Notes: a model not told the origin generated them from the letters alone. A stretch of DNA of 64,000 nt from a virus (IMGVR_UViG_3300021387_001758:1-64000); one strand, 5' to 3'; shown: positions 3,663 through 41,656, numbered from the stretch's first letter. Numbers and translations: made by a program.

Positions 3663-4631
3663 CTATTCTACTTCACTTGAAGGAAGCGAATCTTCTACCG
3701 GATTGCCACCAATCGTCGATAAACTAGCAGCCCAACCAGCATTTTCTACTGATTTTTTATCATACTTAGTTAATACGGATGCAACACCCTTATTCTTAGT
3801 GACATCACCAGATGTAGCGTCTTGCATTGTGTACTTAACAAGTCTGAACATAGCTCCATCAGCAGCTCTCAGAACGTTAATATTCATTGAGAATGTAGCC
3901 GGATCACCATCAGCTTCCATTGTCAGTGACAGATCTTCTGCAGAAACCTTTCCTTTCGGAATAATGAATTGAAGGAATTCATCCTGTCCATTCTGATAGT
4001 TTCTAGCATATGTATCACCAGTGATGTAATATGTTCCACCAAATGTAGAAGCATCAATTGTGATTTCCAGACCGTCAACCATTGCCTTAGTACCTGTTTG
4101 GTTTTCAGGTGGTACTGCTGTAACAGCATCTAAAATATCAAAAGTGATGAAATCAATTTGAGCTGCATTTGCGGCAACTGGTTTTACATCAGAACCCTGA
4201 TATACATAATAAGTAGCTTTACTCTTATCTAAGTATAAAGTGTATTTTCCAACTGGAATTTTCCAGAACTTCTGTTCCTGTGTAGTAGTACCAGCTGTTT
4301 CAATCTGTTCATATTGCACAGTTTTAAGAACTTCTTGATTAGCACCATTACTTTGAACTTTTCCACCAAACATAATAGCCAGTGATTTAACGCTGAACAG
4401 TGCATCCTCAAATGTAGCCGTAACTTCCTTATTTGTATCCCAAGAAATCAGCTTAACGTTACCTTTACCACCAGTAGCATCAACAACTTCAGCACTCTGC
4501 TCAATAGTTGAAACCTTTAATGTGTCCAGGTAAAGAACTGGAGCAGAAGGCGCACCTTTGCTATCCATTTCATAAAAGACAACATCAGCTACTTCTTTGA
4601 TACCATATTTATCAAGAATACTACTTGCCAT
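3663..4631 (-). CDS. Probable major tail (tube) protein
   Basis: 322 aa, beta-rich, G/T/D-rich (DATGGKGN, LTMEADGDPATFSMNI); synteny; hairpin at ~3609-3635 between it and the next gene. Confidence 0.65.
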   Translation of the reverse strand: MASSILDKYGIKEVADVVFYEMDSKGAPSAPVLYLDTLKVSTIEQSAEVVDATGGKGNVKLISWDTNKEVTATFEDALFSVKSLAIMFGGKVQSNGANQEVLKTVQYEQIETAGTTTQEQKFWKIPVGKYTLYLDKSKATYYVYQGSDVKPVAANAAQIDFITFDILDAVTAVPPENQTGTKAMVDGLEITIDASTFGGTYYITGDTYARNYQNGQDEFLQFIIPKGKVSAEDLSLTMEADGDPATFSMNINVLRAADGAMFRLVKYTMQDATSGDVTKNKGVASVLTKYDKKSVENAGWAASLSTIGGNPVEDSLPSSEVE

Positions 4632-5375: not shown

Positions 5376-5859
5376 AAGTAATTAATGAGAACGTTTGTTC
5401 ATAAGCCGAAATCTCTTCTGTTAAGAAGTTTAAATCAAAATCTCCACCAACCATTTTTCCTAAACCGTTTATAGTTTTATCATTTAAAGACTTTTGTATC
5501 TCACCCATTATAGCGAATGGCCGCAAATTCGTTCCTTTTATAATCCATTGGGTTAAAGGAACAAAACTCTCAACCGCAACACTAATATTTTCAAACTCAC
5601 TATTAGTACGATTTCTGCGCCCGCGCGTAAAACGTATTGAAATAATTGAATGAGCTGTCTCTTTTGGGCCAACTCTAGGAATTATTTTAACTAATTTCTC
5701 AAATACTTCATTCTGTATTTGTTCTTCAGTAAGATCTGGTTGGGATAATGGATCTTTATCAGTATAATAAAGTAGTTTTAGAAGATTTTGATTTGCTAAT
5801 AAACGCTTCATAATTTTTTGAGCATTTTCACCTAACTCAATACAATTTCTTACTCCCAT
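5368..5859 (-). CDS. Putative tail terminator/completion protein
   Basis: 163 aa; synteny upstream of tail tube. Confidence 0.4.
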   Translation of the reverse strand: MGVRNCIELGENAQKIMKRLLANQNLLKLLYYTDKDPLSQPDLTEEQIQNEVFEKLVKIIPRVGPKETAHSIISIRFTRGRRNRTNSEFENISVAVESFVPLTQWIIKGTNLRPFAIMGEIQKSLNDKTINGLGKMVGGDFDLNFLTEEISAYEQTFSLITYD

Positions 5860-16959: not shown

Positions 16960-17674
16960 ATTTTAGAAGGCATAGGTTGAAAAAAATATCTTGTGGGGAT
17001 AATAGGTTCAGATTTTTGTTTCGTGGAGATAATGTAGGGGCCGTTTTTCTCTAACGCTTTCCAAAACCTTCCTTTTCCTAAAATAACCCCGGCCCTTCGA
17101 GCGATTGACTTTGTTAAATTTTTAACAACCTCTTCATCAATTCTCACTCAATTTTTCCGCAAGTTACTGTCGCCCAAAAGAACATATGTTCTTTTTTCTA
17201 TTGTCAAAAAATTTTTAGAATTTCGAAAGAATTCCTAAAAGGGGCCGGTCATTTTTTATTCACCCCTCTTCAATAAAAACCACCCCTCTTTTAGTCGAAC
17301 AAAGGAGATCCTATTCTGCGGGCCAGGGTCGCGAAAAAGAACATATGTTCTTTTATTTAGTCCGGACTTTGTTAAATTTTTAACAAAGTCGTAGTCCGGA
17401 CTTTGTTAAATTTTTAACAGGTGATCGTCTTATCTTTGGGACGTTTTAGTCCGGCCTTTGTTAAAAATTTAACAAAGTCCCGCGCGAGTTGGGGGGCCAA
17501 ACACTTTAGCGCATTAAAGTAGTAAAGCGAACCTCTTCATTTTGTATTGTGTATACAGTATACAAGGACAAAAAAATAAATTAAAAAGATAATAAAAAAA
17601 TAATAAAAAGGGGTTGACAAGTTATAGTATCCATGCTATTATATATATGTAAGAAAGAGAGAGGAGAAAAGGAA

Positions 17675-18085
17675 ATGACAAAGGCTTACTACTTCGATAT
17701 GGACGGCGTGCTCGCAAACTTCCATAAGGCATATAAAGAGGATAGAATGGTTGCTCTTAAGAGAGATAAGATGGCGAACCTTGAACCGTTCGAAGCAAAC
17801 GTGAAACTCGTTCGCAACCTTATCGCACATAACGAAGTAGTATATGTACTCACTAAGGCAGCCAACGAAGAGGCGATGGAAGGCAAGATTGAATGGCTTG
17901 CAAAGTACGTTCCTGAGATGGATAAAGAACACTTCATTTGCATCGTAGGTCATGGTAAGAAAGTTGACTTCATTCGTGAAGATGGCGTACTCGTTGATGA
18001 TGATATGAAGAACCTTAAGCCGTGGGCAAAGGAAGGACACGAAGTATACTACGTAGAAGAAAAGGGAATGGAAGTAGTATTCTAA
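17675..18085 (+). CDS. HAD-superfamily 5'(3')-nucleotidase-like protein, paralog 1
   Basis: DMDGVLANF motif I, LVDDD motif IV; own promoter at 17614-17642; start at 17675 by RBS. Confidence 0.75.
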   Translation: MTKAYYFDMDGVLANFHKAYKEDRMVALKRDKMANLEPFEANVKLVRNLIAHNEVVYVLTKAANEEAMEGKIEWLAKYVPEMDKEHFICIVGHGKKVDFIREDGVLVDDDMKNLKPWAKEGHEVYYVEEKGMEVVF

Positions 18086-18260
18086 AGATAGAAAGAGGGT
18101 AGATAAAAGGTTTACCCTCTTCATTTATAGATAGAAAATAGATAGATAAATAGACAGTGAAAAAAGTTTAACTAATTTGTAAAAAGGGGTTGACAGTACC
18201 TCTTCATTGTGGTATATTATAGTTAAGGAAAGGGAAGATAATTGAAAGGAAGGTAAACAA

Positions 18261-18437
18261 ATGAGGAATATAAACACTGAAAACATTATTATAGCAATTA
18301 CAATAATTGCGGCAATTATCGGAACAATCATTGGTATTATTGCAATCGTAAACGGACAGATAGTAGACAGTGAAACAGTTAGCCCCGCCAACCCAGCAAG
18401 TCCCGTTCATCAGTTAATGAAGAGTGTAATGTATTAA
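18261..18437 (+). CDS. Small single-pass membrane protein (58 aa)
   Basis: Hand-translated MRNINTENIIIAITIIAAIIGTIIGIIAIVNG...; promoter, RBS and terminator (18437-18458). Confidence 0.6.
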   Translation: MRNINTENIIIAITIIAAIIGTIIGIIAIVNGQIVDSETVSPANPASPVHQLMKSVMY

Positions 18438-18695
18438 AGAAGTCGAAAGACTTCTTTTCATTTACCAAGGGACGAACATACGTTCGCACCAAGCGAACAT
18501 ATGTTCGTCTACTGCGGGCGGCCGCGCGCACTTTAGCACGTTAAAGCATTAAAGCATTAGTATCGAGTTTGTTTGTTAATTAACAAACGACATATTTATA
18601 CATTGAAATGAATATTTATTTTTTTAATTTGAGGGTTGACAAATATATTCAGTTGTGGTATATTATAATTGACGAAAGGAAAGGAGAAAACACAA

Positions 18696-19439
18696 ATGAC
18701 AAAACTAATATTCGATACTGAGACTACTGGACTGGATAAGCCGTTCTGTTACAATGTGGGCTATATCATTGTTAATGATGAGGGTATGGTAGAGGTAAAG
18801 AAAGAGTATGTATGCGAGCAGGTATGGCATAATCCAATGCTATTTACTACTGCATACTATGCGAACAAAAGACCAATCTATGTTAACAGAATGAGAGCAA
18901 GACAGATAACAATGAAGAAATTCGGTTATATCTGTCAAGAGATGATTAGAGATATTGAGCGCTATAATGTTACAATGGCTTTTGCTTTCAATAGCGACTT
19001 TGACGAGAAAGTGTTCGACTTCAATTGTGAATGGTTCAAATGTAATAATCCTTTTGATAATGTGGAAATTAAGGATATTAGAGGTTTCGTTCATCACTTC
19101 TTAATTGATAACGAGTTTAAAGCATTTTGCGAAGAACACGAACTGTTTACAGAATGTGGTAACTATTCCACCACAGCCGAAACAATGTATAGATATATAA
19201 CTGATGATAATACTTTTGAGGAAGAGCACACGGCGTTAAGTGATAGCATTATTGAGTGGGAAGTATTGAAGAAATGTATTGAAAGGGGCGCTGATACTAC
19301 AGAGAATTATAAAGCGTATCGCTCAATTAAAAGAGATACCGAAAAGGTATTAACAATTGATAATAAAGGCGATATATATACAATTCCTTGTAAAGAGTAT
19401 AAAGTTTATAAAAGCAAAAATAAAATTGTAATTAAATAA
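18696..19439 (+). CDS. DEDDh 3'-5' exonuclease (DnaQ-like), paralog 1
   Basis: IFDTETTG, AFNSDFD, HTALSDS motifs. Confidence 0.85.
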   Translation: MTKLIFDTETTGLDKPFCYNVGYIIVNDEGMVEVKKEYVCEQVWHNPMLFTTAYYANKRPIYVNRMRARQITMKKFGYICQEMIRDIERYNVTMAFAFNSDFDEKVFDFNCEWFKCNNPFDNVEIKDIRGFVHHFLIDNEFKAFCEEHELFTECGNYSTTAETMYRYITDDNTFEEEHTALSDSIIEWEVLKKCIERGADTTENYKAYRSIKRDTEKVLTIDNKGDIYTIPCKEYKVYKSKNKIVIK

Positions 19440-19535
19440 AAAAGTTTTGAAAAAGGGGTTGACAAACCCCTTTTTCCATGTTATTATATGTATGTAAGAA
19501 AGAGAGAGAGTTAAAAAAAGAAAGGAAGTAAAAAA

Positions 19536-19736
19536 ATGAAGTTCTTTAAGATGATGAAGGCGGCGGTAATGATTGGTAAAATGTTCAGCGATGAGGAAAA
19601 AATCAAAGAGTTAATCGACGAATACTTTGCCGAAACCGGATTAACAGTCACTGTTGAAGAGGTAAAGGCAAACGATTCAGAAAAAGTCGACTGGTTTGCG
19701 GAATGGGTTTCTGATAAGGTTATCGCACAACTTTAA
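19536..19736 (+). CDS. Hypothetical protein
   Basis: 66 aa with own promoter and RBS. Confidence 0.6.
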   Translation: MKFFKMMKAAVMIGKMFSDEEKIKELIDEYFAETGLTVTVEEVKANDSEKVDWFAEWVSDKVIAQL

Positions 19737-19839
19737 AAAATAAAATAAAAAAATAAGCGAAAGGGGTTGACAAAACCCCTTTTGTATTGTATTATAATTA
19801 TAGAAAGAGAGAGGAAGAAAAGAAAGAGAGGTAAATAAA

Positions 19840-19998
19840 ATGACAAGAAAGATGGTAGAAGAAAGAATGAAATTCGTTGAAGAAAGACTTTTCTATATCG
19901 CGATGGTAGATATGCCGACCGCAAGAGATAAAGAACTTGAAAGAGAATTTGAACACGAACTCAAAGGACTTAAAGAACAGATGAAGGCGTTCGGTTGA
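19840..19998 (+). CDS. Hypothetical protein (52 aa)
   Basis: Hand-translated MTRKMVEERMKFVEERLFY...; promoter and RBS. Confidence 0.55.
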   Translation: MTRKMVEERMKFVEERLFYIAMVDMPTARDKELEREFEHELKGLKEQMKAFG

Positions 19999-20228
19999 CG
20001 GACGCTTTTTTATGTCAACCAAAAGAACATATGTTCGTCCTGGCGCGGGCGCGTCCACTTTAGCACACTAAAGCGTTAAAGTGTAGATCTTTCGGGCGCG
20101 CTTGTTAAAAATTTAACAAAGTTCCTCTTCAAAAAATTTTAAATTTTTTAAAATAAATACTTGACAAATAAATATATTTTATATATAATATATATAGAAA
20201 GAGAAAGGTAAAAGAAAGGAAAATAAAA

Positions 20229-20672
20229 ATGACTAAAGCAATTTACTTCGATATGGATGGAACAATCGCTAACCTTTACGGAGTTGAAAATTGGTTAGAT
20301 ATGCTTATCAATGGAGACGAAACACCATACAGAGTGGCGAAACCGATGATAAAAATGAATGTACTTGCAAGGTACTTAAACAAGTTACAGAGACATGGTT
20401 ATATAATCGGAATTGTTAGTTGGTTGTCTAAAGGTGGAAACACAGAATATAATAAAAAAGTAACAGAAACAAAAATCAAATGGTTGCATACTCACTTGAA
20501 AAGTGTTGAATGGAACGAAATAAAAATCGTTGAATACGGAACACCTAAAGAAACGATTGTAAACTATCCAAAAGGTATTCTGTTCGATGATGAAAAACAG
20601 AATAGAAAAAATTGGAAAGGTAAAGCATATAAAGAAAATCAGATTATGGAAGTGTTGAAAGCGATTGCATAA
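20229..20672 (+). CDS. HAD-superfamily nucleotidase-like protein, paralog 2
   Basis: FDMDGTIANL, LFDDE motifs. Confidence 0.75.
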   Translation: MTKAIYFDMDGTIANLYGVENWLDMLINGDETPYRVAKPMIKMNVLARYLNKLQRHGYIIGIVSWLSKGGNTEYNKKVTETKIKWLHTHLKSVEWNEIKIVEYGTPKETIVNYPKGILFDDEKQNRKNWKGKAYKENQIMEVLKAIA

Positions 20673-20757
20673 AATCGCTTTCAACCTTAAAAAAGGTATT
20701 GACAAGTTAAAAATTATATGCTATAATAAAAGCAGATAAAGGAAAGGGGAAAAGAAA

Positions 20758-21051
20758 ATGACACAGAGTATTATGCAGTTGGCGGAATTATTAGACGAGT
20801 GGAATATTCCTTATGAATTAACTGACGATGTATGCGGAAACGAAAATAATCAGTTATGGTATCCTAACTATAAACATAATATTTGTGATGTAATTTGTCA
20901 CGAATACAGTTACGGCGGAAAAGATGGCTTACTTGAAATAATGGGTTTAGTCCCTGAAGAGGTCGGCGATGATGTAGAAGGGTATTTAACAGTTGCGGAA
21001 GTATTCCACAGAATTCTGCAGGACTATTGCGAAAATAAAGTAAAAAATTAA
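20758..21051 (+). CDS. Hypothetical protein
   Basis: 97 aa; promoter and RBS. Confidence 0.65.
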   Translation: MTQSIMQLAELLDEWNIPYELTDDVCGNENNQLWYPNYKHNICDVICHEYSYGGKDGLLEIMGLVPEEVGDDVEGYLTVAEVFHRILQDYCENKVKN

Positions 21052-21142
21052 AAAGTTTTTTTCTAAAAAGGGTTGACAAACCCTTTTTTTCATGTTATAT
21101 TATATATGTAAGAAAGAGAGAGATAAAAGAAAGGAAAAGAAA

Positions 21143-21316
21143 ATGGCTTACGTAGAAATGTTCGATTATGTGCTTTCTGTAGAACAGTATGAACGCGAAC
21201 GCGCGCAGTACCACGAAGAATGGTTAGCGATGGATGATTGGGACCGTTCATGGTATGATGATGAAGAGGAATTCATCGAAGACCGTTTCCATTCCGCTTG
21301 CTATCCGGATGACTAA
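21143..21316 (+). CDS. Small acidic protein (57 aa)
   Basis: Start re-placed by RBS; terminator at ~21327-21352. Confidence 0.6.
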   Translation: MAYVEMFDYVLSVEQYERERAQYHEEWLAMDDWDRSWYDDEEEFIEDRFHSACYPDD

Positions 21317-21614
21317 AGAAAAGAAAAGTAAGCCGCAAGGCTTATTTTTTTCTATCCATCAAAAGAACATATGTTCGGGCGCGGCCGGCCGCACTTTAGC
21401 GCATTAAAGTAATAAAGTGCGCGACTTTCGCCGTCGATTGTTAAATTTTTAACAATTGATCCTATATATATATTATAATTCTCTTCCCATTATATCATAC
21501 CATACAAGAGAGATAATGTCAAGGGAAAAATTAAAAAAAATTTGTTAAATTTTCCCTTGACAGATTAAAAAACTCATGCTATAATAAAGACACAAAAGGA
21601 AAGGAGAGTAAAAA

Positions 21615-21851
21615 ATGAAAGCATTTGTTACGAAAGCAAACTCGGATTATTGGTACAAAATTAAAGAATTTGACACGATGGAAGATATTGCAAAATTTAT
21701 GAAAGAGGTTGAGTGCGGATTAATTATTGAAGAAAATGATTATACTGACGATGTACTTTTTGAATTTTGGGACGGAATGAAACAGGAAGACATTCCGATT
21801 ATTAAAGAATGTGCTTTACATATCACTATTTACAATGATTATGTAGAATAA
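21615..21851 (+). CDS. Hypothetical protein
   Basis: 78 aa; promoter, RBS, terminator at ~21872-21900. Confidence 0.65.
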   Translation: MKAFVTKANSDYWYKIKEFDTMEDIAKFMKEVECGLIIEENDYTDDVLFEFWDGMKQEDIPIIKECALHITIYNDYVE

Positions 21852-22065
21852 AAATTCTGATAAAGAGAAAAGAGTTAGTCTTTACTAACTCTTTTCTTTT
21901 GCGCGTCCCTCTTCAAAAAAAAACTTGACAAAATAAAAAAAATATGATATAATATATATAGAAAATAAAAAAGAAAAGAAAATTTGAAAAAAAATTAGAA
22001 AAAGGGTTGACAAACAAAATTTGAGTGGTATAATAATAGTAGAAAAAGAGAAAGGAGAAAAGAAA

Positions 22066-22422
22066 ATGGCTGTTAGTAGAAAAGTAGAAAGAGAACTTTT
22101 GAGAGAAGAGTATTTGAACAAACTGATTGAGTACTTTAAAGCCGATGAAGATGTTTTGAGAGTGAAAAGTAACGAAATCGCATTTCCTGTAGTTGGTTGT
22201 AACGATAGTGAGGATTTTATCGTAATTACAGTAAAAGTGCCTACGGGTGCAAACAAAGGTACAGAGCCTTACGATGGTTACGAACTTGCCGAAGAATACG
22301 AAATGAAGTTGAAAGAGAAAGAACAGAAAAAGAAAGAAAAGGCAATCGCAAAAGAAAAGAAAATCAAGCGTGACGAAGAAGTCAGACGCAAGAAAAAGGA
22401 AATCGCCGAAAAAGGAAAATAA
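22066..22422 (+). CDS. Hypothetical coiled-coil protein, MAVSRKVERE family paralog 1
   Basis: Close paralog of 27748..28107. Confidence 0.75.
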   Translation: MAVSRKVERELLREEYLNKLIEYFKADEDVLRVKSNEIAFPVVGCNDSEDFIVITVKVPTGANKGTEPYDGYELAEEYEMKLKEKEQKKKEKAIAKEKKIKRDEEVRRKKKEIAEKGK

Positions 22423-22510
22423 AAAAAATAAAAAATAAAAGAGAAAAGGGGTTGACAAAATCCCTTTTTTCATATATAATATAATTGTAAAGAGAAAGGG
22501 GAAAGAAAAA

Positions 22511-22693
22511 ATGAAAAAGAAATACAGACTGAATAAAGTAAAATTTATCCGTTTTATCTGCTTTACAATTATGCTTTTAATCATCGGTTGGTTCATGGTT
22601 TCATACATTGAAATTCTTTGTAAGAATATCACAGAAAATCCGACTTACAGCGACTGGAATTTTATCTTTGTTGCACAAAAACTTTTGAAATAA
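22511..22693 (+). CDS. Small membrane protein
   Basis: 60 aa with one hydrophobic segment. Confidence 0.6.
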   Translation: MKKKYRLNKVKFIRFICFTIMLLIIGWFMVSYIEILCKNITENPTYSDWNFIFVAQKLLK

Positions 22694-22914
22694 TCACCTT
22701 TTACCTCCTTTTTTACAATATATGGAAAAGGTCACCACTGAGTGGTGACTTTTTCCGCTCTTCAAAAAGAACATATGTTCGCCTCCGGCGCCGGACCGGA
22801 GATTGTTAAAAAATTAACAATTTCGGCACCGCGCACTTTAACGCTTTAACGTGGTAAAGTGTACGCAGACGGGCGCGCCCGCTTTAGCGCGCTAAAGTGG
22901 TAAAGGATTGTACT

Positions 22915-23470
22915 AAATAAAAAACATTAAAAAAGGTATTGACATTTAGGGCGGGCGGGTGTATACTATAATTGTTCCAAGGGAGGGACAAACGAAAATA
23001 AAAAAAATAAAAAAAGTTTGAAAAATCCCTTGACAAATCAAAGCCAATGTGCTAATATATACTTGAGGGTAGGAGAGTTAAGGGTTTACCTCACTACAAA
23101 GTAGCAAGCAGTCGCAAGTACAAGCACTACCGAAAAAACCCGAAAAAAGTTTAAAAAAAGTGTTGACAAACTAAAGCAAATGTGCTAATATATAATCAAG
23201 GAAAGGGAGATACTTCTGAGACTGTTCCCCAATACCGAAAGGCAAGAGAACTGTGAGCCAAATAAAATTTGTAGCCGCATAGGAAGTATCACCCGAAATC
23301 CTAAAAAAATCTAAAAAAGGTATTGACAAACTTGAAAAAGTATGTTAATATATAAATGTCAAGAGGGTCGTGGAGAGGTCGCCCCACGAAGTAGCGTAAG
23401 AGGATAACACACAGACCTAAATCGATAAGTGAAAACCTCTTGACAATATTACAAAAGTGTGATAATATAT
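22915..23470 (+). promoter_or_regulatory. Stack of five tandem sigmaA promoters with ORF-less intervals
   Basis: TTGACA near 22940, 23031, 23164, 23323, 23440, each with a -10-like hexamer. Confidence 0.75.
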
Positions 23471-23546
23471 AATCACAGAGAGGGAGACAGGAACTCCCAA
23501 AGGTAACTAAAAAGGGTCACGACCAACGTGAGAAAGTAGGTACACT

Positions 23547-23888
23547 ATGACTAACAGAGAATTCTTCGAAATGGTAATGAATGGTAACGTAACTGACGAG
23601 GTTAAGGCTCACGCTGAAATGTCGATTGAGAAACTCGATGCGCGCAACGCAAAGAGAGCATCTCAGCCGTCAAAGAGAGCGATTGAGAACGAACCTATCA
23701 AGGCTAACATCAGAGAGTATCTCGCTGATAAAGAGCCGACTACGGCAAGCGAAATTGCCAAGGGACTTGAACTGACTGTTCAGAAAGTTTCCGCACTGTG
23801 TAGACAGATGGTAAATGATGGTATTCTCACCGTTACCGAGGTTAAGGTAAAGGGAAAGGGCAATCAGAAAGCGTATGCTATCGGTTGA
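23547..23888 (+). CDS. Winged-HTH (MarR/ArsR-like) protein, paralog 1
   Basis: TTASEIAKGLELTVQKVSALCRQMVNDGIL. Confidence 0.75.
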   Translation: MTNREFFEMVMNGNVTDEVKAHAEMSIEKLDARNAKRASQPSKRAIENEPIKANIREYLADKEPTTASEIAKGLELTVQKVSALCRQMVNDGILTVTEVKVKGKGNQKAYAIG

Positions 23889-24181
23889 CAATAATTCCCA
23901 GCCGGGAAGAGAGAGAAAATCTCTCTCTTCCTTTTTTTACCATTCCGCGGTTAACAATAACAGGTATTATGTCAACCGCGACAATAATAATATTATTGTC
24001 AACCGGCCAAAAATCTTTATCCACAGATTGTTAAATTTTTAACAGGGCGGCCGGCCGCGCGCACTTTAGCGAGTTAAAGCGTTAAAGGATCGAGCCAAAA
24101 AAATAATTGGAAAAAAGTACTTGACAAGTCCTCTTCATTATGGTAATATATACTTGTAAGAAGGAGAAAGGAGAAATAAAA

Positions 24182-24373
24182 ATGACTTGTACTGAATGGA
24201 ATAAAGGGATTAAGTTCCTCACTACTGCAGAGGTAGGCGCGTGGGTTGACCACGAAGACCGCACAGTTATTATCGAGGAGATGTGCGGAGGCAGATATTT
24301 ACTCCTCGACCGCAAAGAAGTTTGCGGGGTGACCGATTCGGTCATCGAGGCGATGTCATTCCTTAGGGGATAG
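24182..24373 (+). CDS. Hypothetical protein
   Basis: 63 aa; start by RBS. Confidence 0.6.
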   Translation: MTCTEWNKGIKFLTTAEVGAWVDHEDRTVIIEEMCGGRYLLLDRKEVCGVTDSVIEAMSFLRG

Positions 24374-24527
24374 GCAACCGCCTTTTTTATTAACCAATGA
24401 ACGAACGTTCGCGCGGCCGGCCGCGCGCACTTTAGTCTGCTAAAGCATTAAAGGATCGAAAAAAAGTACTTGACAAATCCTCTTCATTATGGTAATATAT
24501 GGGTAGAAAGAGAAAAGGAGATAAAAA

Positions 24528-24701
24528 ATGAAAGTGATTTTTGCAGGGTATCTTATTGTAGTCTTTTCCCTTGGCGTTCATGGGATTTTTTATGATAAAA
24601 CCGATAAAAACGGAAATTTTAAAGTAAATTGGCCTTTTGGTTTATTTCTTTTCTTGTTTGGACTTACTCCCATAATTGCGAAAATATGTAATTTAATTTG
24701 A
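24528..24701 (+). CDS. Small two-TM membrane protein (57 aa)
   Basis: Hand-translated MKVIFAGYLIVVFSLGVHGIF...WPFGLFLFLFGLTPII. Confidence 0.55.
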   Translation: MKVIFAGYLIVVFSLGVHGIFYDKTDKNGNFKVNWPFGLFLFLFGLTPIIAKICNLI

Positions 24702-24770
24702 AATTGCACTTGACAAGTCCTCTTCATTGTGATATACTTATTATAGAAAGAAAGGAAAGGAGAAAGGAAA

Positions 24771-24938
24771 ATGAAAACGTACTTATTTGAAGATTTTGAA
24801 ACGGGTGAGAGATTCTTTGTTGAAGAGGAAACACCGGAAAAGGCAATTGCAGTTGCCGATGAATATTTTGACCACGCTATTTTCATGTGGGAAGTATCCG
24901 AAGAATGGGCGGACTTGGCAGGATTTGACACTTACTAA
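24771..24938 (+). CDS. Small acidic protein (55 aa)
   Basis: Hand-translated MKTYLFEDFETGERFFVEEE...; promoter and RBS. Confidence 0.6.
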   Translation: MKTYLFEDFETGERFFVEEETPEKAIAVADEYFDHAIFMWEVSEEWADLAGFDTY

Positions 24939-25042
24939 AAAAAATTAAAAAAGTTTTGAAAAAGGGTTGACAAGTTCAACCCTTTATGGTAATATATAAT
25001 CGTAAGGAAGAGAGAGTTAAAAAAAAGAGAAAGGAAAAAGAA

Positions 25043-25234
25043 ATGATGTACTTAGTAATTTTTATCGAAGAATACGTTGGCTACCACTTTGACGAACACA
25101 CCAAGTTTTTCAAGGATGAACAGTCGGCAAAGGAATATTGCCAGAAATTAAACGCCGAATTTGCCGAAGAAAATCATTGTTCGGTTGAAGATTTAGGTGA
25201 CTACTACACGGTTGAGTGGGTTAAGGAAGGTTAG
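25043..25234 (+). CDS. Small acidic protein
   Basis: Start by RBS; terminator at ~25250-25276. Confidence 0.6.
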   Translation: MMYLVIFIEEYVGYHFDEHTKFFKDEQSAKEYCQKLNAEFAEENHCSVEDLGDYYTVEWVKEG

Positions 25235-25586
25235 AAAGGACTAACCCACCAAAAAGAGGGCAACCTCTTTTTTTTTGTTCTGCCGGCGAACATACGTTCT
25301 CGGCGGCCGCCCTCGCGCACTTTAGCGTAGTAAAGTGGTAAAGTGGACGGATCCGGCGCCCGCGCATAAACATACATGAAAATGTATAAATATTTTTTTC
25401 AAAAAAGTATTGACAAAATTGATTATATATATTATACTATAATGGGGAAGTATGCCCAGGCGTAAAAGTGCGAATTTTCTGAATTGTCAGAAAATTAAAA
25501 CTTTTTATTTTGGGGTTGACAAATTCCGTTCTATCCCTTATAATAGTAACTGTAAGGTAAAGAGAAAAGGAAAGGAACGAAACAAC

Positions 25587-26252
25587 ATGAAAATCGACAA
25601 AAGAAAAAACTATTATCTGACAATCGACACGGAAACGGCAAACGGATTTGATGACCCGATTGTATACGATTTAGGCGGATGTATACATGACAAGAAAGGC
25701 AACGTAATGGAAACATTTTCCTTTATCATTTACGAAACCTTTTGCGGAATGAAAGATTTAATGCAGAGTGCCTACTACTCCGAAAAAATTCCGATGTATC
25801 AGAAAGAAATTGACGAGGGAAAAAGAAAAATCGTAACCTATACCACCGCCAAAAGATATATCAATGCACTTTGTAAAAAGTACAATGTCAAGGCAATAAT
25901 CGCCCACAATATGAGATTTGATTATAGGGCAACGACACGGACGCAAAGATATATCACGAAATCAAAAGTCAGATTTTTTCTTCCGTATGGCGTTGAATTG
26001 TGGGATACAATGAAAATGGCAAATGATACAATTTGCAAACAGAAAACATATATCAAGTGGTGTAAAGAAAACGGATATATGACAAAGAACGGACAAGTCA
26101 GAAAAACGGCGGAAATCCTTTACAAGTACATTTCAGGCAACTGGGATTTTGTGGAAAATCATACAGGACTTGAAGATGTGCTAATCGAAAAGGAAATCTT
26201 TTCCAAGTGTATGGCACAACATAAGCCGATGAGAAAATTATGTTTTGACTAA
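25587..26252 (+). CDS. DEDDh 3'-5' exonuclease, paralog 2
   Basis: IDTETANG, AHNMRFD, HTGLEDV. Confidence 0.85.
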   Translation: MKIDKRKNYYLTIDTETANGFDDPIVYDLGGCIHDKKGNVMETFSFIIYETFCGMKDLMQSAYYSEKIPMYQKEIDEGKRKIVTYTTAKRYINALCKKYNVKAIIAHNMRFDYRATTRTQRYITKSKVRFFLPYGVELWDTMKMANDTICKQKTYIKWCKENGYMTKNGQVRKTAEILYKYISGNWDFVENHTGLEDVLIEKEIFSKCMAQHKPMRKLCFD

Positions 26253-26335
26253 AAAAATTCTAAAAAAGGGGTTGACAAAGTCAGCCCCTTTTGGTATTAT
26301 AATTATAGAAAGAGAGAGAAAGAAAGGTAAGAAAA

Positions 26336-26488
26336 ATGTATATGGTATGGGTATTTGATGAAGATTTATATGATGATGTGTTGATTTTTGAAGGGTCATA
26401 TGAACAGTGCCAAGAGGTAGTAGCCGAAGGGCGCGCAATCGGTGAGGACCCGTATATCGTAGCCAGCGAGGACTACTACGAGGACTAA
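26336..26488 (+). CDS. Small acidic protein (50 aa)
   Basis: Hand-translated MYMVWVFDEDLYDD...; terminator at ~26499-26527. Confidence 0.55.
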   Translation: MYMVWVFDEDLYDDVLIFEGSYEQCQEVVAEGRAIGEDPYIVASEDYYED

Positions 26489-27029
26489 GCCGAAAAGGAT
26501 AAGCCGAAAGGCTTATCTTTTTTTTTGTTCTTAAAAAGAACATATGTTCGCGGCGGGCCGGTGGCGCGCACTTTAGTCTGCTAAAGCGTTAAAGCGATCC
26601 GCGCCGCTTGTTAAAAATTTAACAATCGATCCGGTCCGCCGATTGTTAAAAAATTAACAAAGATTTTTTTCAAAAAGGGGTTGACTTTTTCCCTATGTGG
26701 GTATATACTATAATTGTCAAGGGGAGAGGAAGCCGAGGGACTCACGAGGGCGCGCACTCCACGAGAGAAGGAAAAAAATTCTCGAAAAAAAATAAAAAAA
26801 CCCCTTGACACTATCACAAAAATGTGATAATATATAATTGACCCAAGGGGAGAGGTTAAAAACGAAAGTAGTAAAATATTACAACCCCGCGGGTGAAAAA
26901 AAGTTTTAAAAAGTACTTGACAAGATAGACAAAAGGTGCTATACTTAAGTCAAGGAAAGGGGAAAGACAGGAACTTTCCCAAAGGTAAATCTAAAAAGGG
27001 TTGTGACCAACACAAGAAAGAGGTGTCTT

Positions 27030-27374
27030 ATGACAAAGAGAGAATTCATGGAAATGGTTATCGCTGAGGTTACTAACGCAGAACTCAAGGCTTTTGCCCA
27101 GTCTGAAATCGAAAAGATGGACGCGCGCAACGCTAAGAGAGCCGAAACGCCTTCCAAGACGGCAATCGCTAACGAGCCTATCAAGGCACAGATTGTCGAA
27201 TTCCTGAAGGGTTGCGAGGAAAAGGTTACCGCTTCCGCTATCGCTTCCGAGGTTGAAATCTCAACGCAGAAGGCTTCCGCCCTTTGCAGACAGTTGGTAG
27301 CAGATGGTGTTCTGACCGTCGCAGATGTGAAGGTTAAGGGCAAGGGTACACAGAAGGGTTACGAAATCGCGTAG
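27030..27374 (+). CDS. Winged-HTH protein, paralog 2
   Basis: VTASAIASEVEISTQKASALCRQLVADGVL. Confidence 0.75.
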   Translation: MTKREFMEMVIAEVTNAELKAFAQSEIEKMDARNAKRAETPSKTAIANEPIKAQIVEFLKGCEEKVTASAIASEVEISTQKASALCRQLVADGVLTVADVKVKGKGTQKGYEIA

Positions 27375-27747
27375 CCTAACCCAAGCCGAGGAAGGGAAAA
27401 ATTTTCCCTTCCTTTTTTTACCATTCAGACGAACATATGTTCGTGGCAGAAATTGGAAGAACATATGTTCGCGAACATACGTTCGCGGTCGATCTGGTCC
27501 GGACTTTGTTAAAAATTTAACAATCGGGGCCGGCGCCGCGCACTTTAACACACTAAAGTGCTAAAGTCTTTCGATCCGGCGCGCGGTTTACATAATATTA
27601 TTATCGTTATGCGGTGCGGTTTACATAATATTATTATCGTTACGAAAAAATCCGAAAAAAATTTTTGAAAAAGGGTTGACAAATTGTGTTCTATCCCTTA
27701 TACTATATATAGAAAGTAAGAGTTGAGGTTAAGGAAAGGAGTTAACT

Positions 27748-28107
27748 ATGGCAGTATCGCGCAAGGTAGAAAGAGAAATCATCCGCAAACAGTATCTCGA
27801 AATGGTAGCCGAATTCCTCAAGGAAAAGGGTGAAGATGTTCTCCGTGTTAAGTCCAACGAAATCGCTTTTCCAGTCGTTGGATGTGAAGATAGCGAAGAT
27901 TTTCTCGTTATCACTTTCAAGGTGCCGACTGGCGCCAATAAGGGAATGGAACCGTATGACGGTTACGAAATGGCGGAAGAGTACGAAATGAAACTCAAAG
28001 CCAAAGAGGAAAAGGCGAAAGCCAACGCCGAAAAAAAGGCGAAGAAAATCGCTCGCGACAAAGAAATCAGAGCGAAAAAGGCAGAAATTGCCAACAAGGG
28101 AAAATAG
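27748..28107 (+). CDS. MAVSRKVERE family paralog 2
   Basis: Shares LRVKSNEIAFPVVGCxDSEDF and KVPTGANKG with 22066..22422. Confidence 0.75.
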   Translation: MAVSRKVEREIIRKQYLEMVAEFLKEKGEDVLRVKSNEIAFPVVGCEDSEDFLVITFKVPTGANKGMEPYDGYEMAEEYEMKLKAKEEKAKANAEKKAKKIARDKEIRAKKAEIANKGK

Positions 28108-28619
28108 CCATTTTCTTCCAGAGGGAAGAGGGTCGGTTGACCCTCTTCTTTTATTGTAAACCGCGCAACAATAATAATATTATGTCAACCACGAACATAT
28201 GTTCGCGGCAGCCGAATTTCAAAGGCGAACATATGTTCGCGGCCGGCCGTAGTTGTCCACTTTAACACACTAAAGCGATAAAGTGCGCGCCGGCGGGCGT
28301 CCACTTTAACACGTTAAAGTAGTGAAGTGCAGAAATCCGGGCCGCTCGTTAAATTTTTAACAAAGTCAAGTTTTCTGGCAACTATTCCGAAAATTAGTTT
28401 TTTAGGAATAGTTACAACCTCTTCACTATATATAGTATATTTCCCTCTTCAATACCACTATATATAGTATGTTTTGGTCGTGCCAACTATTCCGAAAAAA
28501 TGCTTTATCGGCATAGTTATACCGCCGAATTGTCAGAATATTCCAACTATTCAGAATTGTCAGAATATTCCAGCTTTTCGCTTTAGCGTACTAAAGCGTT
28601 AAAGCGTTGTCAAATTTTA

Positions 28620-28860
28620 AAATTTTTCCAGGAGCTGCGAAAGAGCTGCGATCGAAAATTTTTTTCACGGCCGTGGGGAGCTGCGATTTGACTTTTTTAT
28701 TTCGCATCCAGGAGCTGCAAAAAATTTGACTTTAAAAGTCAAATTTCTTTTATAAAATTCAAGGAGCTGCGCTTTGGAAATTTGACAAAAAAAGTCAAAT
28801 TTTTAAGGAGCTGCAACTTAGAGCTTTTGGGAATTTGACTTTAAAAGTCAAATTTTCAGC
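28620..28860. repeat. Cluster of GGAGCTGC direct repeats and TTTGAC-N7-GTCAAA palindromes
   Basis: GGAGCTGC at 28631, 28677, 28711, 28763, 28807; palindromes at 28722, 28778, 28832 (and ~29580). Confidence 0.8.
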
Positions 28861-29115
28861 GCGCACCCGCACGAACCTCTTCAAATTAAAATTTGAAAAA
28901 GCTCTAAAAATCTTTTATAATATATATAGAAAGTGAGGGAAGAAAAAAATAAAAAGCTCCTCCGCTGAAGAGGAAAGGGCAAAAGAAATTTTGACAAATC
29001 CTCAAAAATCTTATATAATATATATGTAAGATGAAGAGAGGGAAAAGTAACTTCCTTCTAAAGTAAAAACCATAACGTAACTGGGTGGTGACCTACACCA
29101 GAAAGAGAGTACAAA

Positions 29116-29457
29116 ATGACTAAGAGAGAAATGATGAACCTGATCGCTAACGGAACTATCAATGAAGAGGTTATGGCTTGGGCTGTCGGCCAGATCGAGA
29201 AGATGGATGCGGCTAACGAGAAGCGCAGAAACTCCGTTTCTAAGAAAGCGCTTGAGAACGCTCCGATCATCGACAGAATCGTGAACGAGATCCTCGGTGA
29301 GGAACCGATGACTGCTACTGATGTAGCTGGAGTTCTCGGAGTTTCTGTCCAGAAAGCATCTGCACTCCTGCGCACTGCCGTGAAGGAAGGTAGAGCTGCT
29401 GCCGAGGACGTGAAAGTTAAGGGCAAAGGCACTCAGAAGGGGTACACTCTCGCGTAG
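29116..29457 (+). CDS. Winged-HTH protein, paralog 3
   Basis: MTATDVAGVLGVSVQKASALLRTAVKEGRA. Confidence 0.75.
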   Translation: MTKREMMNLIANGTINEEVMAWAVGQIEKMDAANEKRRNSVSKKALENAPIIDRIVNEILGEEPMTATDVAGVLGVSVQKASALLRTAVKEGRAAAEDVKVKGKGTQKGYTLA

Positions 29458-29499
29458 TGCCGCGCGAGCTGTAGTAAACGGCTGAAGAGGGGAAATCAC

Positions 29500-30690
29500 C
29501 CCTCTTCTTTTTATTTTATACGTATACTTAGACGTATTAGAATACGTTTGAGTATTATTTTTTTAACTTTTAATAGGAAAATTTGACTTTTTAAGTCAAA
29601 TTATTAATAATTTTAAACTTTTTTAAAGAAAAAATTTGATTTTAGTCGATGTGTGCGGCACCCACCTATTTCTGACCATACCAACTTCTTTCATAATCCT
29701 CCAACTCCTTTCAAAACCCCTCAACTTCTTTCAAAAACACGCAACTTCTTTCATTTTCCCCTTCTGAACTACCCCCTTCTCCGAGATCTACTGCGCAGGA
29801 CCACCGCCCTCCCATGCCCCGTGGCAGTCTACCTCCCTATAACGTATTACTAAACTTCTACTTATACGTAAACTTATACGTAACAACCCGTTACCAGCTG
29901 GGTTATCCTTAGTCGTATACGTATACTTATACGTAGACTTATACGTTTTACCGTTACCCTTTTCCTACCTTTTTCGTTACCCTTTTCCTTATCCGTTTAC
30001 TTATCCTTTTTTGTTACCTTTTCCGGTACATTTCCCGTTATCCTTTTTCGTAAACCCTTTCCCGGTACCTTAAACATATACGTATACGTATACGTTTATC
30101 GTATTCGTTTTCGTAGAGGTAGAAAATAAAAAAGCTCCTTCCGCTAGAGGAAGAAGCTAAGTTAATCGTAGTAGTTGACCGTTACGGCTCCCTTGTTTTT
30201 CCCCACCGTTGGTGGTAAAACCTGCGGGAGCTTCACAACTAGTAGAAGGTTTTTAGATTTGAGGTACCTTAATATTATACGTTTATACGTATAAGTATAT
30301 GTATACGTATATTTATATTTTTTCCTTATACGTATAATAAGTGATTTTAGTTAAAAGAAGCTACAATTTTTTTCGTAAAACTGCGCGAGTCCGAAATTTT
30401 TCTGCAAAATTTTTTGGAAAATTTCTGCAAAATTTTTTGGAAAATTTTTTGGAAAATTTCTGACGCTGGAAATTTTTTGGAAAAAATTTTTTTGGAAAAT
30501 TTTTTGGAAAATTTTAAGCCAGGGAAATTTTTTGGAAAATTATTTTCCCAAAATTTTTCCCAAAATTATTGATATACGTAGACTGCGCGCTGTCAAAAAC
30601 CTACTGATTTTCCCAAAATTTTTTGGAGAATTTTTTGGAAAATTTTTGATTGCGCGCAGTCGAAATAAAAAAGGAAGCTACAAAGCTTCC
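29500..30690. repeat. Non-coding low-complexity repeat tract at the strand switch
   Basis: TATACGTA(TAC) repeats ~29860-30340, CCGTTA/CCTTTTT repeats ~29950-30070, GGAAAATTTTT repeats ~30400-30650. Confidence 0.8.
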
Positions 30691-38727: not shown

Positions 38728-38802
38728 TGGCGGGAAGGATAGGACTCGAACCTACAACCTCGTGCTTAACAGGCACTTGCTCCACCATTGAGCTACCAAC
38801 CC
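38728..38802 (-). tRNA. trnN: tRNA-Asn(GUU)
   Basis: Cloverleaf, CCA; two U-U mismatches in acceptor stem. Confidence 0.85.
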
Positions 38803-38812
38803 ACGCTCAAGT

Positions 38813-38953
38813 CTATTCAGACTGCGCGCCTTCAAGATTTCTAATCTGTCTCTTCAGTTTCCTCACTACACCAGAACTCTCACCGTTCTTTCCGTTCGAC
38901 TGAAGAAGATGCAGCCTATGTTTAAGACCTTCAATAGATTTTCCCTTTGCCAT
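38813..38953 (-). CDS. Small basic protein (46 aa)
   Basis: Hand-translated MAKGKSIEGLKHRLHLLQSNGKNGESSGVVRKLKRQIRNLEGAQSE; AAGGAG RBS. Confidence 0.55.
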   Translation of the reverse strand: MAKGKSIEGLKHRLHLLQSNGKNGESSGVVRKLKRQIRNLEGAQSE

Positions 38954-38978
38954 AAAATAAACTCCTTTCTTAAAGAGC

Positions 38979-39615
38979 AAACACCCTTTAATAAATATAT
39001 AATTAAGAGTCTTTCAACTTACTAACTACTAACGCCACTATATTTGACTAATGGGGAGACATACCCAAGCAATAAGGAGCGACCCTATTACTATATGCCC
39101 CGCTTGCGCCAAGCCCATAGAGGACTGATTACCTCTACCTTTCAGGTGATATTCGGCAATTTTTTAGAAAAGCAATCTCTCTATCTTCCTTGCTTCATAC
39201 CAAATAAATTAATATGCTTGAGTCTTCGCAGATTTACCCTACTCGGAGTTGACATACAAACGGTTATACACAGATTTCTCTGCTTCAACTGCAAAACGAA
39301 TTATTGGCATTTCTTAGGTTTGCCCCTGGGCAGCCAACCCAAAACCTAACTAAGATTCGGCGTTTGCTATTAACAAGCGCTTCTATTATTTCGCCCGTTC
39401 GTATTCTGTCTTTAGCTCACGTTAGCAGTAGCGCTACACCTTTGGTTTCGGCTTCCAACCTACACGATAGTCGTCACCGCCTATCGCACAGCCCCTTAAC
39501 GAGTATCCCCGTTTCTATGGACTGACCGCCCTTTCGGGTTGTTTCGGTGTACCTCAGCACTGCAATCAGCAACTCTTCACTGAGTTCTTATTTATATATT
39601 TATTAAAGAGTGTTT
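38979..39615 (-). ncRNA. Large (~630 nt) structured ncRNA candidate, possibly GOLLD-like
   Basis: No credible ORF; elevated GC; ~30-bp terminal inverted repeat; own promoter TTGACG(39668-63)-N17-TATAAT(39645-40). Confidence 0.6.
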
Positions 39616-39810
39616 CTCCTTTCTTTACCTTATATAAATATTATACCGAAAATTTGGATTTTCGTCAAATTTTCAGAAATATTTTTCTCTAAAAATTTTA
39701 TCTTGTTTAAAGGCTTTTGTTTATCGGTACGCCACAAGAGCCTTAACTCCCGCCACTACCCTACGTTTACCGTACAGACCCTCTCAAGCGAGCGCCAGTT
39801 AGTGGATTGA

Positions 39811-39885
39811 TGGCTACGGCGGCTGGGTTCGAACCAGCGAATGACGGAGTCAAAGTCCGTTGTGTTACCACTTCACCACGCCGCA
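39811..39885 (-). tRNA. trnQ: tRNA-Gln(UUG)
   Basis: ACGGA-CUUUGAC-UCCGU; CCA. Confidence 0.95.
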
Positions 39886-40030
39886 ATATAAGTGGCATAT
39901 TTTCCCCATATGCCGGAAGGGCGAGTTTAACGGCCCTCGCGCCGCCTATTGATTATGCCCTCAACAGGATAAGAGCTGTGGTGCGCCTGACTGGAGTCGA
40001 ACCAGCACGATCTCACAATCGAGGGATTTT

Positions 40031-40768
40031 CCTGCTACTCCATGTTGCCATGGCCGCGTCACCGCGTTGTAGTCTGGACTTTCTCTTCACCATGCGTTAA
40101 TACGTTTAGGTGCGCGCCGTCAAGTCTCTACACGTTCCTCATTTGAGGCTTCGCTCGGGATTGTCCACGTGGGAGTTTCCCCGAATTTGACGCGATTCAC
40201 ATGGGAGTTTCCAACCCAAGTGCTCTATTTTATATTTTTGGTTTTATATGTATCAGTAAAATAATGACAATTAGGACAAAGTATTTCGAGATTATCTAAA
40301 TGATTATTATTTTTATTGCCATCTTTATGATGTAACTCTAATGGAATAGGATTACCCAACCACTCAGTCAAGCCACAACGGCAACATTTTTTCTCGAAAA
40401 ATCCTTCGGCAAATAATCTATTTCTTAGTTTAAAAGAAGTAATTGCTTGTTCATTATTCAAATATTTTTCTATTGGAGTTCGATATTTTCCAATATTTTT
40501 TGTGTGTGCTTGACCAGTAAAATGAGAAGTATCAAAATTATATTTCTCACACATCTCTTTTATAGTCTTAATAGCAGAACCACCATCTGGATTATATCCT
40601 ACTTTATTAGCTAACTCTCTAAAAGATTCACTCTCAGCACACATTACTGATAACTGTTCAACAGTAAATTTTTCATACTTTTTCATACCTTTTCTCCTCT
40701 TATCTCTCTACTTATAAGTAGAAAAAAGGCAGACTAAATATAAAAAATTAAACCAAACCTATATCGAA
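40031..40768 (-). mobile_element. Group I intron with HNH ORF 5' of the core
   Basis: Ends in G; AAATTCGGGGAA, AATCCCGAGC, GTGTAGAGACT, AAGAGAAAGTCC all lie after the ORF. Confidence 0.85.
40225..40686 (-). CDS. Intron-encoded HNH endonuclease
   Basis: CCRC...LELHHKDGNKNNNHLDNLEILCPNCH. Confidence 0.9.
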   Translation of the reverse strand: MKKYEKFTVEQLSVMCAESESFRELANKVGYNPDGGSAIKTIKEMCEKYNFDTSHFTGQAHTKNIGKYRTPIEKYLNNEQAITSFKLRNRLFAEGFFEKKCCRCGLTEWLGNPIPLELHHKDGNKNNNHLDNLEILCPNCHYFTDTYKTKNIK

Positions 40769-41655: not shown

Positions 41656-41656
41656 A

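Follow-up and report, generated by a model that had tools for sequence, protein, structure and literature searches.

We identified putative operators of three host repressors, LexA, HisR and Rex, gathered in a single early-gene region of an uncultured phage, within a 64,000-nucleotide stretch of viral DNA (IMGVR_UViG_3300021387_001758:1-64000, hereafter the window) that comprises the first 64 kb of a 78,387-bp IMG/VR virus record with a CheckV completeness of 66%. The LexA-type (SOS) boxes of this region, GAAC-N4-GTTC, to which a preliminary description of the sequence had drawn attention, account for one of the three operators of a module (LexA, HisR, Rex) that was absent from that description. 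We read them as probable high-affinity operators of the host LexA in a multi-repressor docking array, as predicted from their motif, number and placement. For the net function of this array, we rank titration of the host repressors first among the readings considered, and give it slightly less than even odds.

LexA-type boxes in the early-gene array

The boxes lie in an array on the + strand, an island of ~25 small genes within - strand structural genes, at which the GC skew flips (Table 1). It contains 29 near-consensus sigma-A-type promoters (TTGACA-N17-TATAAT) and is an early-gene region transcribed by the host sigma-A polymerase. The LexA-, HisR- and Rex-type operator families are all restricted to this array.

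GAAC-N4-GTTC occurs 15 times between positions 17180 and 28238, with 11 copies reading GAACATATGTTC, three GAACATACGTTC and one GAACGAACGTTC; all 15 lie where the preliminary description had placed them, and the triple that it reported at 27431-27484 is real. A count against shuffled sequence, which it had also proposed, gave 17 copies in the window versus 0.62 in shuffles (shuffle maximum 3), and the 12-kb array by itself gave 15 versus 0.19. Of the 18 copies in the entire 78-kb record, the three outside the array are loose matches with other centres, situated in coding DNA. Those at 4266 and 5389 in the window are near chance level and probably are chance matches outside the system, so that the earlier claim of no copies elsewhere in the window holds for the boxes of the system, all confined to the array, and fails for these two.

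The full 14-mer CGAACATATGTTCG, which is the B. subtilis or Gram-positive LexA consensus (Au et al. 2005, listed in PMC8270828), is present in 4/15 boxes and the form aGAAC..GTTCg in 6/15, and all boxes deviate by 0-2 mismatches from this consensus. The palindrome expected of Gram-positive LexA operators, CGAAC-N4-GTTCG with an A/T-rich centre, was recovered, with the arms in 15/15 boxes and the 12-mer core in 11/15. We computed information content on the 15 boxes of the window and on 114 boxes pooled from 11 related arrays, in which the GAAC and GTTC arms carry no evidence of conservation, since the search itself required them. Each of the four central bases has 0.9-1.6 bits, except for a value of 2.0 at one central position of the window set. 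In the pooled set, information was 1.3 bits at the flanking C, 0.8 bits at the flanking G and 0-0.5 bits further out; in the 15 boxes of the window, one additional base per side still carries ~1 bit. Because the information drops to background beyond 14 bp, the conserved unit is the 14-bp LexA footprint rather than a longer phage-specific sequence. The match to a Bacillus-type consensus, as first claimed, therefore stands for the motif as a Gram-positive LexA operator with conservation confined to 14 bp, and has to be narrowed to four boxes for the full 14-mer.

The motif was also recovered in an unbiased scan that counted every inverted dyad of 5 nt with a spacer length of 0-8 nt, in which only three families were enriched: CTTTA-N6-TAAAG (14 copies), TTGTTAA-N4-TTAACAA (10-12 copies) and GAACAT followed directly by ATGTTC (11 copies), each with 0-1 copies across the remaining 66 kb. 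We additionally scored 17 Firmicute regulator consensus strings in the array, and found strong enrichment for LexA and clostridial Rex only. The strings for Cre, Fur, PerR, CtrS/CtsR-type, CIRCE, Spo0A, TnrA, Crp/Fnr, parS, PurR and FapR were not enriched in the array, the CodY-like (3 vs 0.33) and NrdR-like (2 vs 0.22) matches are too few to claim, and a single DnaA box could be chance. The NrdR-like matches are two copies of CACTATATATAGTAT, 32 nt apart at 28424-28470, which is an NrdR-like spacing, and the three CodY-like 15-mers lie in 28528-28569 (two) and at 25482-25496 (one); similar NrdR-like and CodY-like boxes occur in the matching island of one relative (L088).

HisR- and Rex-type operators beside the boxes

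For HisR, we identified 14 boxes of the form cacTTTA-N6-TAAAgtg in the array, with 13-14 sites (17502-28604) of the extended form CACTTTAR-N4-YTAAAG-N3-TAAAG. The published HisR consensus, cacTTTAnnnnnnTAAAgtg, is a 20-bp palindrome upstream of histidine biosynthesis and transport genes, and is bound in vitro by HisR of Ruminococcus gnavus solely when L-histidine is present (PMC9413887). The 26-mer HisR motif was found in at least 120 bacterial contigs, chiefly metagenome-assembled genomes (MAGs) of gut or rumen Clostridia, plus Jeotgalicoccus, and stands on chromosomes as a single site directly 3' of the -10 box, ahead of SBP_bac_3 lipoprotein/transporter genes, hisZ and hisG. These genomic positions, together with the agreement with the published consensus, identify the extended motif as a predicted element of the HisR regulon. 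HisR operators with an extra third half-site were also present in at least 115 IMG/VR contigs (loci L020-L132), at up to 25 per 13 kb (L021, L116).

For Rex, we identified 12 copies of TTGTTAA-N4-TTAACAA at ≤1 mismatch, versus 0.03 in shuffles; the clostridial Rex operator TTGTTAANNNNTTAACAA is attested in the literature, and the Bacillus-type variant TTGTGAA-N4-TTCACAA has 0 copies in the array. The clostridial type of the Rex variant, and the HisR operator, which implies a HisR-bearing host, would provide a clue to the host from sequence alone. Our literature search found no description of HisR or Rex operators on phage DNA. To judge by the motifs, it cannot reasonably be a coincidence that three independent dyads each equal the operator of a host repressor, and it becomes more probable on this account that LexA indeed recognises the LexA-type box.

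Modules follow terminators and avoid promoters

The 15 boxes form 11 clusters, of which 9/11 by reading (8/11 by a strict script) start 8-45 nt 3' of an intrinsic terminator hairpin and T tract, bearing out the earlier remark that they usually follow a terminator. Both exceptions lie at the left edge of the array, ahead of its first promoter. The usual order is a terminator, 1-3 LexA boxes, a G+C-rich linker, a HisR box preceded or followed by 0-3 Rex boxes, and a promoter, and the modules part the transcription units of the array from one another (Table 1). The spacer modules are mutually 60-80% identical over 57-76 nt (families D9 and D20), indicating that the copies share ancestry. The linkers between LexA and HisR boxes span 15-22 nt and contain 74-100% G+C, often with GGCCGGCC, in a genome of ~35% G+C. 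They are located at 18507-18528, 20037-20055, 21377-21391, 24411-24427, 25300-25317, 26550-26568 and 28239-28257, and relatives carry GCCCGGGC at this position.

No box overlaps any of the 29 promoters of the window, versus 3.3 overlaps expected, and across 15 arrays (this one and 14 from IMG/VR, with 272 promoters and 118 intergenic boxes) there were 0 overlaps versus 19.3 expected, figures that assume uniform placement in intergenic DNA and, the arrays being related, amount to no true probability. A LexA operator is expected within or adjoining the promoter of its target gene; here, the boxes were found 71-275 nt upstream of the next -35 element. Because they never overlap a promoter, they are not classical operators of the early genes. 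Promoter occlusion was rejected on this ground, and a function as an RNA element was rejected since the boxes lie 3' of the terminators.

Table 1. Positions of the early-gene array, its operator modules and the loose LexA-type matches in the window
Feature	Position	Strand	Content
Early-gene array	17000..29600	+	Delimited from GC-skew flip, open reading frames (ORFs), promoters, terminators and motif map
Module 1, left array edge, no preceding terminator	17111..17191		Rex 17111-17128; LexA 17180-17191 (aGAACATATGTTCt)
Module 2	17339..17527		LexA 17339-17350; Rex 17369-17386, 17403-17420 (1 mismatch), 17458-17475; HisR 17502-17527; promoter 17614
Module 3, post-terminator	18474..18586		LexA 18474-18485 (CGAACATACGTTCG), 18495-18506 (perfect 14-mer); 82% G+C linker; HisR 18529-18554; degenerate Rex-like palindrome 18569-18586
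Module 4, post-terminator	20025..20119		LexA 20025-20036; G+C-rich linker; HisR 20056-20081; Rex 20102-20119; -35 at 20161
Module 5, post-terminator	21365..21455		LexA 21365-21376; 100% G+C linker with GGCCGGCC; HisR 21392-21417; Rex 21438-21455
Module 6, post-terminator	22769..22905		LexA 22769-22780; Rex 22803-22820; HisR 22834-22859 (degenerate), 22880-22905; -35 at 22939
Module 7, without LexA box	24017..24087		Perfect DnaA-box 9-mer 24017-24025; Rex 24028-24045 (1 mismatch); HisR 24062-24087
Module 8, post-terminator	24399..24453		Variant LexA GAACGAACGTTC 24399-24410; 100% G+C linker; HisR 24428-24453; -35 at 24470
Module 9, post-terminator	25288..25343		LexA 25288-25299 (CGAACATACGTTCt); G+C-rich linker; HisR 25318-25343
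Module 10, post-terminator	26538..26660		LexA 26538-26549; G+C-rich linker; HisR 26569-26594; Rex 26608-26625, 26643-26660; -35 at 26681
Module 11, post-terminator	27431..27566		LexA triple 27431-27442, 27459-27470, 27473-27484; Rex 27506-27523; HisR 27541-27566
Module 12, promoter-less island, post-terminator	28193..28604		LexA 28193-28204, 28227-28238 (both perfect 14-mers); HisR 28258-28283, 28302-28327, 28579-28604; Rex 28346-28363 (1 mismatch); marginal sites: NrdR-like pair 28424-28438, 28456-28470, CodY-like 15-mers at 28528, 28555
Loose match GAACTTCTGTTC	4266..4277		Inside - strand ORF, non-consensus centre
Loose match GAACGTTTGTTC	5389..5400		Inside - strand ORF, non-consensus centre

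Distribution in related phages

Against isolated phages, blastn searches with the spacers returned early-promoter matches to Staphylococcus Herelleviridae only, plus one human-gut contig that carries HisR and Rex boxes without a LexA box, and a search for relatives through the sigma-like protein adjoining the array found no related locus. Pattern scans of IMG/VR recovered this module from contigs whose array proteins are 45-77% identical to those of the phage, with 12 LexA boxes in L088/G311, 7 in L016, 7 in L009 and 4 in L112, and with GAACATTTGTTC used throughout in L052 and L056. Tandem perfect LexA boxes occur in 38 contigs, the densest array holding 20 LexA and 10 Rex boxes in 11.5 kb (L275), and the box flanks read TAGAAC..GTTCTA in contigs with 55-59% G+C. 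Similar arrays recur across dozens of uncultured phage contigs.

The relative G307 (129,514 bp, containing L063) is 100% complete by CheckV, and its structural module is syntenic with that of the phage studied here, with a terminase of 81% identity. It contains no GAAC-N4-GTTC anywhere, no Rex box and four HisR boxes. Because this complete relative has none, the LexA boxes are an accessory, lineage-specific feature. The post-terminator slot of G307 is filled by a TTAGACGT-N3-ACGTCTAA palindrome (G307 L264-L270, ~55-64 kb), and also carries TTAGACGTCAAA half-sites.

Two further arrangements were observed among the IMG/VR contigs. In A+T-rich DNA of L021 (9690-9893), L119 (3081-3283) and L304 (5035-5123), runs of five to six perfect GAACATATGTTC boxes are phased with a period of 21 bp, a spacing of two helical turns by which bound dimers would all face the same side of the helix. 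Some contigs 13-14.8 kb in length carry either a HisR box ~37 nt from each end in inverted orientation (L030, L039, L040, L096) or a perfect LexA box pair 60-220 nt from each end, likewise inverted (L279, L284, L283, L298), and look like small linear phages with host-repressor sites in inverted terminal repeats.

Candidate binders of the LexA-type boxes

We searched the 78-kb record for proteins that might bind the three operators, and found no match to LexA_DNA_bind, Peptidase_S24, the Rex N-terminal domain or Trp_repressor (TrpR/HisR). The statement of the preliminary description that no integrase or CI-like repressor is visible extends to all 78 kb, in which we identified no integrase and no repressor of the LexA/CI (S24) type. 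Three winged-helix paralogues of 113-114 amino acids are encoded in the array (23547-23888, 27030-27374 and 29116-29457), for which an AlphaFold model (predicted local distance difference test score 88.5) has a generic PadR/MarR-like fold, with no LexA chain in the top 50 PDB matches; a PadR/MarR-type fold, as modelled, says nothing on specificity. Two further paralogous proteins, of 118/119 amino acids (22066-22422 and 27748-28107), have lysine-rich tails and no Pfam match. The winged-helix family was present in 14/20 box-bearing loci versus 7/26 without boxes, and the 118/119-residue family in 13/20 versus 4/26, counts that are confounded by relatedness. Both families were rejected as binders that track the boxes, as both are present in the complete, box-free G307.

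On the side of the host, two Acutalibacteraceae MAGs with related phage arrays carry CGAATAAATGTTCG or GAAAATTTGTTC upstream of lexA and CGAACATTTGTACA upstream of recA, from which candidate hosts appear to use the same class of box, in weaker versions than those of the phage. In 61 Clostridia genomes, the perfect 12-mer occurs 0-3 times each and 31 times in total, ~4-fold above the 7 of a reversed control; the phage has 11 in 11 kb. We consider it likely, on the sequence evidence, that the host LexA docks on the boxes.

Proposed titration of host repressors and alternative explanations

Under titration, the perfect-consensus LexA sites of each phage genome would exceed those of the whole host chromosome, and replication of the phage DNA would multiply them until they outcompete the weaker operators of the chromosome and deprive them of LexA; HisR and Rex would be sequestered likewise, and the SOS, histidine and redox regulons would be derepressed without DNA damage. 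Derepression of SOS functions, histidine supply and the reoxidation of reduced nicotinamide adenine dinucleotide (NADH) could benefit the phage. The sites outnumber the perfect sites of the chromosome, avoid promoters and increase with replication, and, as expected of a sponge, many predicted high-affinity sites were found with no associated target promoter. The boxes are nearer to consensus than any known natural SOS box set, those of SPbeta having 3-5 mismatches. A stronger form of titration, which we put forward more tentatively, is that the phage genome may act as a multi-target DNA sponge that strips LexA, HisR and Rex from the chromosome without any phage protein; if true, this would be a non-coding takeover of host functions, widespread in large gut and rumen Firmicute phages.

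Several points weigh against titration. A pure sponge fails to predict the strict placement of the boxes directly after terminators, and LexA and HisR are usually autoregulated, which buffers titration. About one third of the genome lies outside the record and could encode a binder. The G307 array does without LexA or Rex boxes, and the palindrome in its slot has no match in 301 Clostridia genomes at ≤1 mismatch; the slot can thus hold sites that are not recognisable as host operators, and the idea that every slot motif is a host operator is not upheld.

The placement that a sponge leaves unexplained would suit a conditional roadblock, or sensor of host state, in which repressors bound after terminators stop read-through and insulate the early units. 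LexA, HisR and Rex would occupy the DNA as long as the host is undamaged, well supplied with histidine and low in NADH, and would come off it upon DNA damage, histidine starvation or a high NADH level, altering read-through and, with it, phage timing, as a Firmicute counterpart of the 'lytic deferment' attributed to CtrA. We rate this explanation as unlikely, while taking it more seriously than any other alternative. Nine of the 11 clusters lie 8-45 nt past an intrinsic terminator, the LexA box is always the first element of its module, relatives show the identical order, and tandem or triple boxes and the 21-bp phased runs (L021, L119) suit a stable barrier; moreover, all three regulators report host physiology and leave DNA under stress, and host-regulator sites have precedents on lytic phages (PMC9437464; PMC2731898). 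However, every downstream unit has its own consensus promoter, leaving no obvious gain from blocking read-through, the genes inside one unit are joined without modules, the variable box-promoter distance (71-275 nt) runs counter to direct control, and the complete G307 manages without boxes. It is improbable, to a greater degree, that a phage-coded DNA-binding protein binds the boxes as a dispersed operator set, comparable to SPBRE for MrpR/SroF, with a likeness to the LexA consensus that is convergent or stems from a captured DNA-binding domain. The SPBRE/MrpR precedent, the other palindromes in the slots of relatives (one lacking a match in the 301 Clostridia genomes), the three winged-helix paralogues in the array and the 34% of the genome outside the record leave room for such a protein, but the boxes match a 14-bp consensus exactly and with confined conservation, their neighbours match two other host repressors equally exactly, and the same box occurs in contigs of widely differing G+C. 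Furthermore, no LexA-, Rex- or TrpR-like domain is present in 78 kb, the winged-helix and 118/119-residue families also occur in box-less arrays and in G307, and the winged-helix model is generically PadR/MarR-like, with no LexA chain in its top 50 matches.

The preliminary description had suggested a LexA-held carrier state or titration of LexA, and of these titration stays live. A carrier state, in which the host LexA would repress the early genes and keep the phage latent until SOS induction, as in tectivirus GIL01, is very improbable: LexA control of phage switches is known, and neither an integrase nor an S24 repressor was found in 78 kb, nor an integrase or resolvase in the complete relative, yet 0 of 29 early promoters are overlapped by a box, 11 clusters face 29 promoters, and G307 has the same array without boxes. 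We give even less credence to boxes that bind nothing and are conserved linkers, copied along as cassette boundaries duplicated or recombined. The shared ancestry of the modules (60-80% identity over 57-76 nt) would agree with such a spread, but the flanks have decayed to background around an intact 14 bp, the boxes are found again in unrelated sequence surroundings and in contigs that differ widely in G+C, and their identity with the LexA consensus would go unexplained.

Other features of the array and of the phage genome

Within transcription units of the array, we identified four terminator-like hairpins (GGGGTTGACAAACCCC followed by T's) with a TTGACA -35 element inside the loop (19449-19476, 19757-19785, 21065-21088 and 22444-22470), such that a single element terminates one gene and starts the next. 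They resemble the promoter-early stem-loops of T4-type phages. Three to five tandem consensus promoters without ORFs lie at 22939-23546, at 26681-27029 and ahead of 29116, in each case preceding a winged-helix paralogue, and could give rise to long leaders or small RNAs. The right end of the array (28600-28860 and 29580) contains five GGAGCTGC repeats, interspersed with three AATTTGAC-N-GTCAAATT palindromes, a region that may be a replication origin or another protein-binding site; GAGCTGC repeats are likewise found at the end of the human-gut contig MT837012.1 (L018).

The record encodes a large terminase, a portal, a Dit protein, a DNA ligase and a sigma-like protein, and a 1,994-residue ORF within the tail module, which by its size and position is probably the tape measure. 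The terminase shares 43% identity with its counterpart in Geobacillus virus E3 and ~35% with the YonF-type terminase of an SPbeta-like Brevibacillus phage, identities that place the phage as an uncultured large siphophage, predicted to be distant kin of the SPbeta-like phages. Its source is most likely the gut or rumen, and its host a gut or rumen member of the Clostridia. On the - strand, 38728-44376 holds 21 transfer RNA genes, an 81-nt gene resembling transfer-messenger RNA (a mini-tmRNA, 41093-41173), whose Rfam alignment spans the full 374-position tmRNA model, and a ROOL RNA (38989-39608). No tyrosine integrase or resolvase-type recombinase was identified in the 78-kb record or in the complete G307, and PF00589, the fold of the integrase-like master repressor of SPbeta type, had no match in the 78 kb (66% complete) or in G307; the clade is probably non-integrating.

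Comparison with known systems

The closest parallel is SPbeta, a distantly related large siphophage that likewise has GAAC-N4-GTTC boxes in its early region, often with aGAAC..GTTCt flanks. SPbeta contains ~10 SOS boxes with 3-5 mismatches, spread over 134 kb in promoter regions, some of which were tested and bind LexA in vitro with dissociation constants of 3.9-12 nM (PMC8270828), and LexA controls the sar antirepressor in SPbeta/phi3T (PMC8270828; bioRxiv 10.1101/2025.11.27.690993). In contrast, the present phage has 15 boxes with 0-2 mismatches in 11 kb, outside promoters and together with HisR and Rex operators, and the integrase-fold repressor of the SPbeta switch (LexA to Sar to SroF/MrpR) was not found in this 66% record. 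The SPBRE of SPbeta, the operator of the phage-coded repressor MrpR (SroF), is located at promoters (PMC10516654). It is similar as a short motif repeated at ~10 intergenic sites of an early region, likewise in a large siphophage, and differs in that it matches no host operator and is bound by a phage repressor.

The gp7 protein of the tectivirus GIL01 has ~50 amino acids. GIL01 resembles the present phage, in which LexA sites are predicted, in its use of host LexA without a CI-type repressor, and in GIL01 LexA acts with gp7 at promoter P1 (PMC4551915). The GIL01 boxes overlap the repressed promoter and need gp7 as a co-factor, whereas the boxes described here overlap none, and GIL01 is a 15-kb linear plasmid prophage, in contrast to the siphophage studied here, with its ~120 kb.

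Sites for host regulators that report on the state of the cell are known from two further groups of phages. In phages of Alphaproteobacteria, dense clusters of CtrA sites, mostly in promoters, have evolved repeatedly and are associated with 'lytic deferment' (PMC9437464). The likeness is in the skewed, dense accumulation of high-scoring host-regulator sites in a restricted non-coding part of the genome, here 15/18 boxes within 11 of 78 kb; however, the CtrA sites are promoter-based and regulate phage genes, and CtrA is a cell-cycle response regulator and no repressor, whereas the sites of this phage avoid promoters and combine three repressors. Spo0A boxes, and parS sites for Spo0J, are also present on phi29 and Nf (PMC2731898), two virulent Bacillus phages and thus Firmicute phages with sites for host regulators reporting host state, but their Spo0A boxes are few, overlapping and repressing early promoters and replication origins, in contrast to the many consensus copies found here outside promoters.

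Bacteria themselves provide an example of a sink for a DNA-binding protein in datA of E. coli, which sequesters DnaA. In synthetic decoy arrays in yeast, repeated high-affinity sites without a target promoter sequester a DNA-binding protein (PMC3322331), a function that for this phage we infer. We found no literature description of LexA, HisR or Rex decoy arrays on phage genomes. Should LexA, HisR and Rex be titrated or read by these sites, the phage would manipulate or sense its host at the level of DNA, invisibly to gene annotation. For SOS-box predictions in viromes, dense LexA boxes need not signal lysogeny or SOS-inducible genes. Known phages borrow a host regulator at one or a few promoters, whereas the phage described here gathers consensus-grade predicted operators of three repressors in spacers that avoid promoters.

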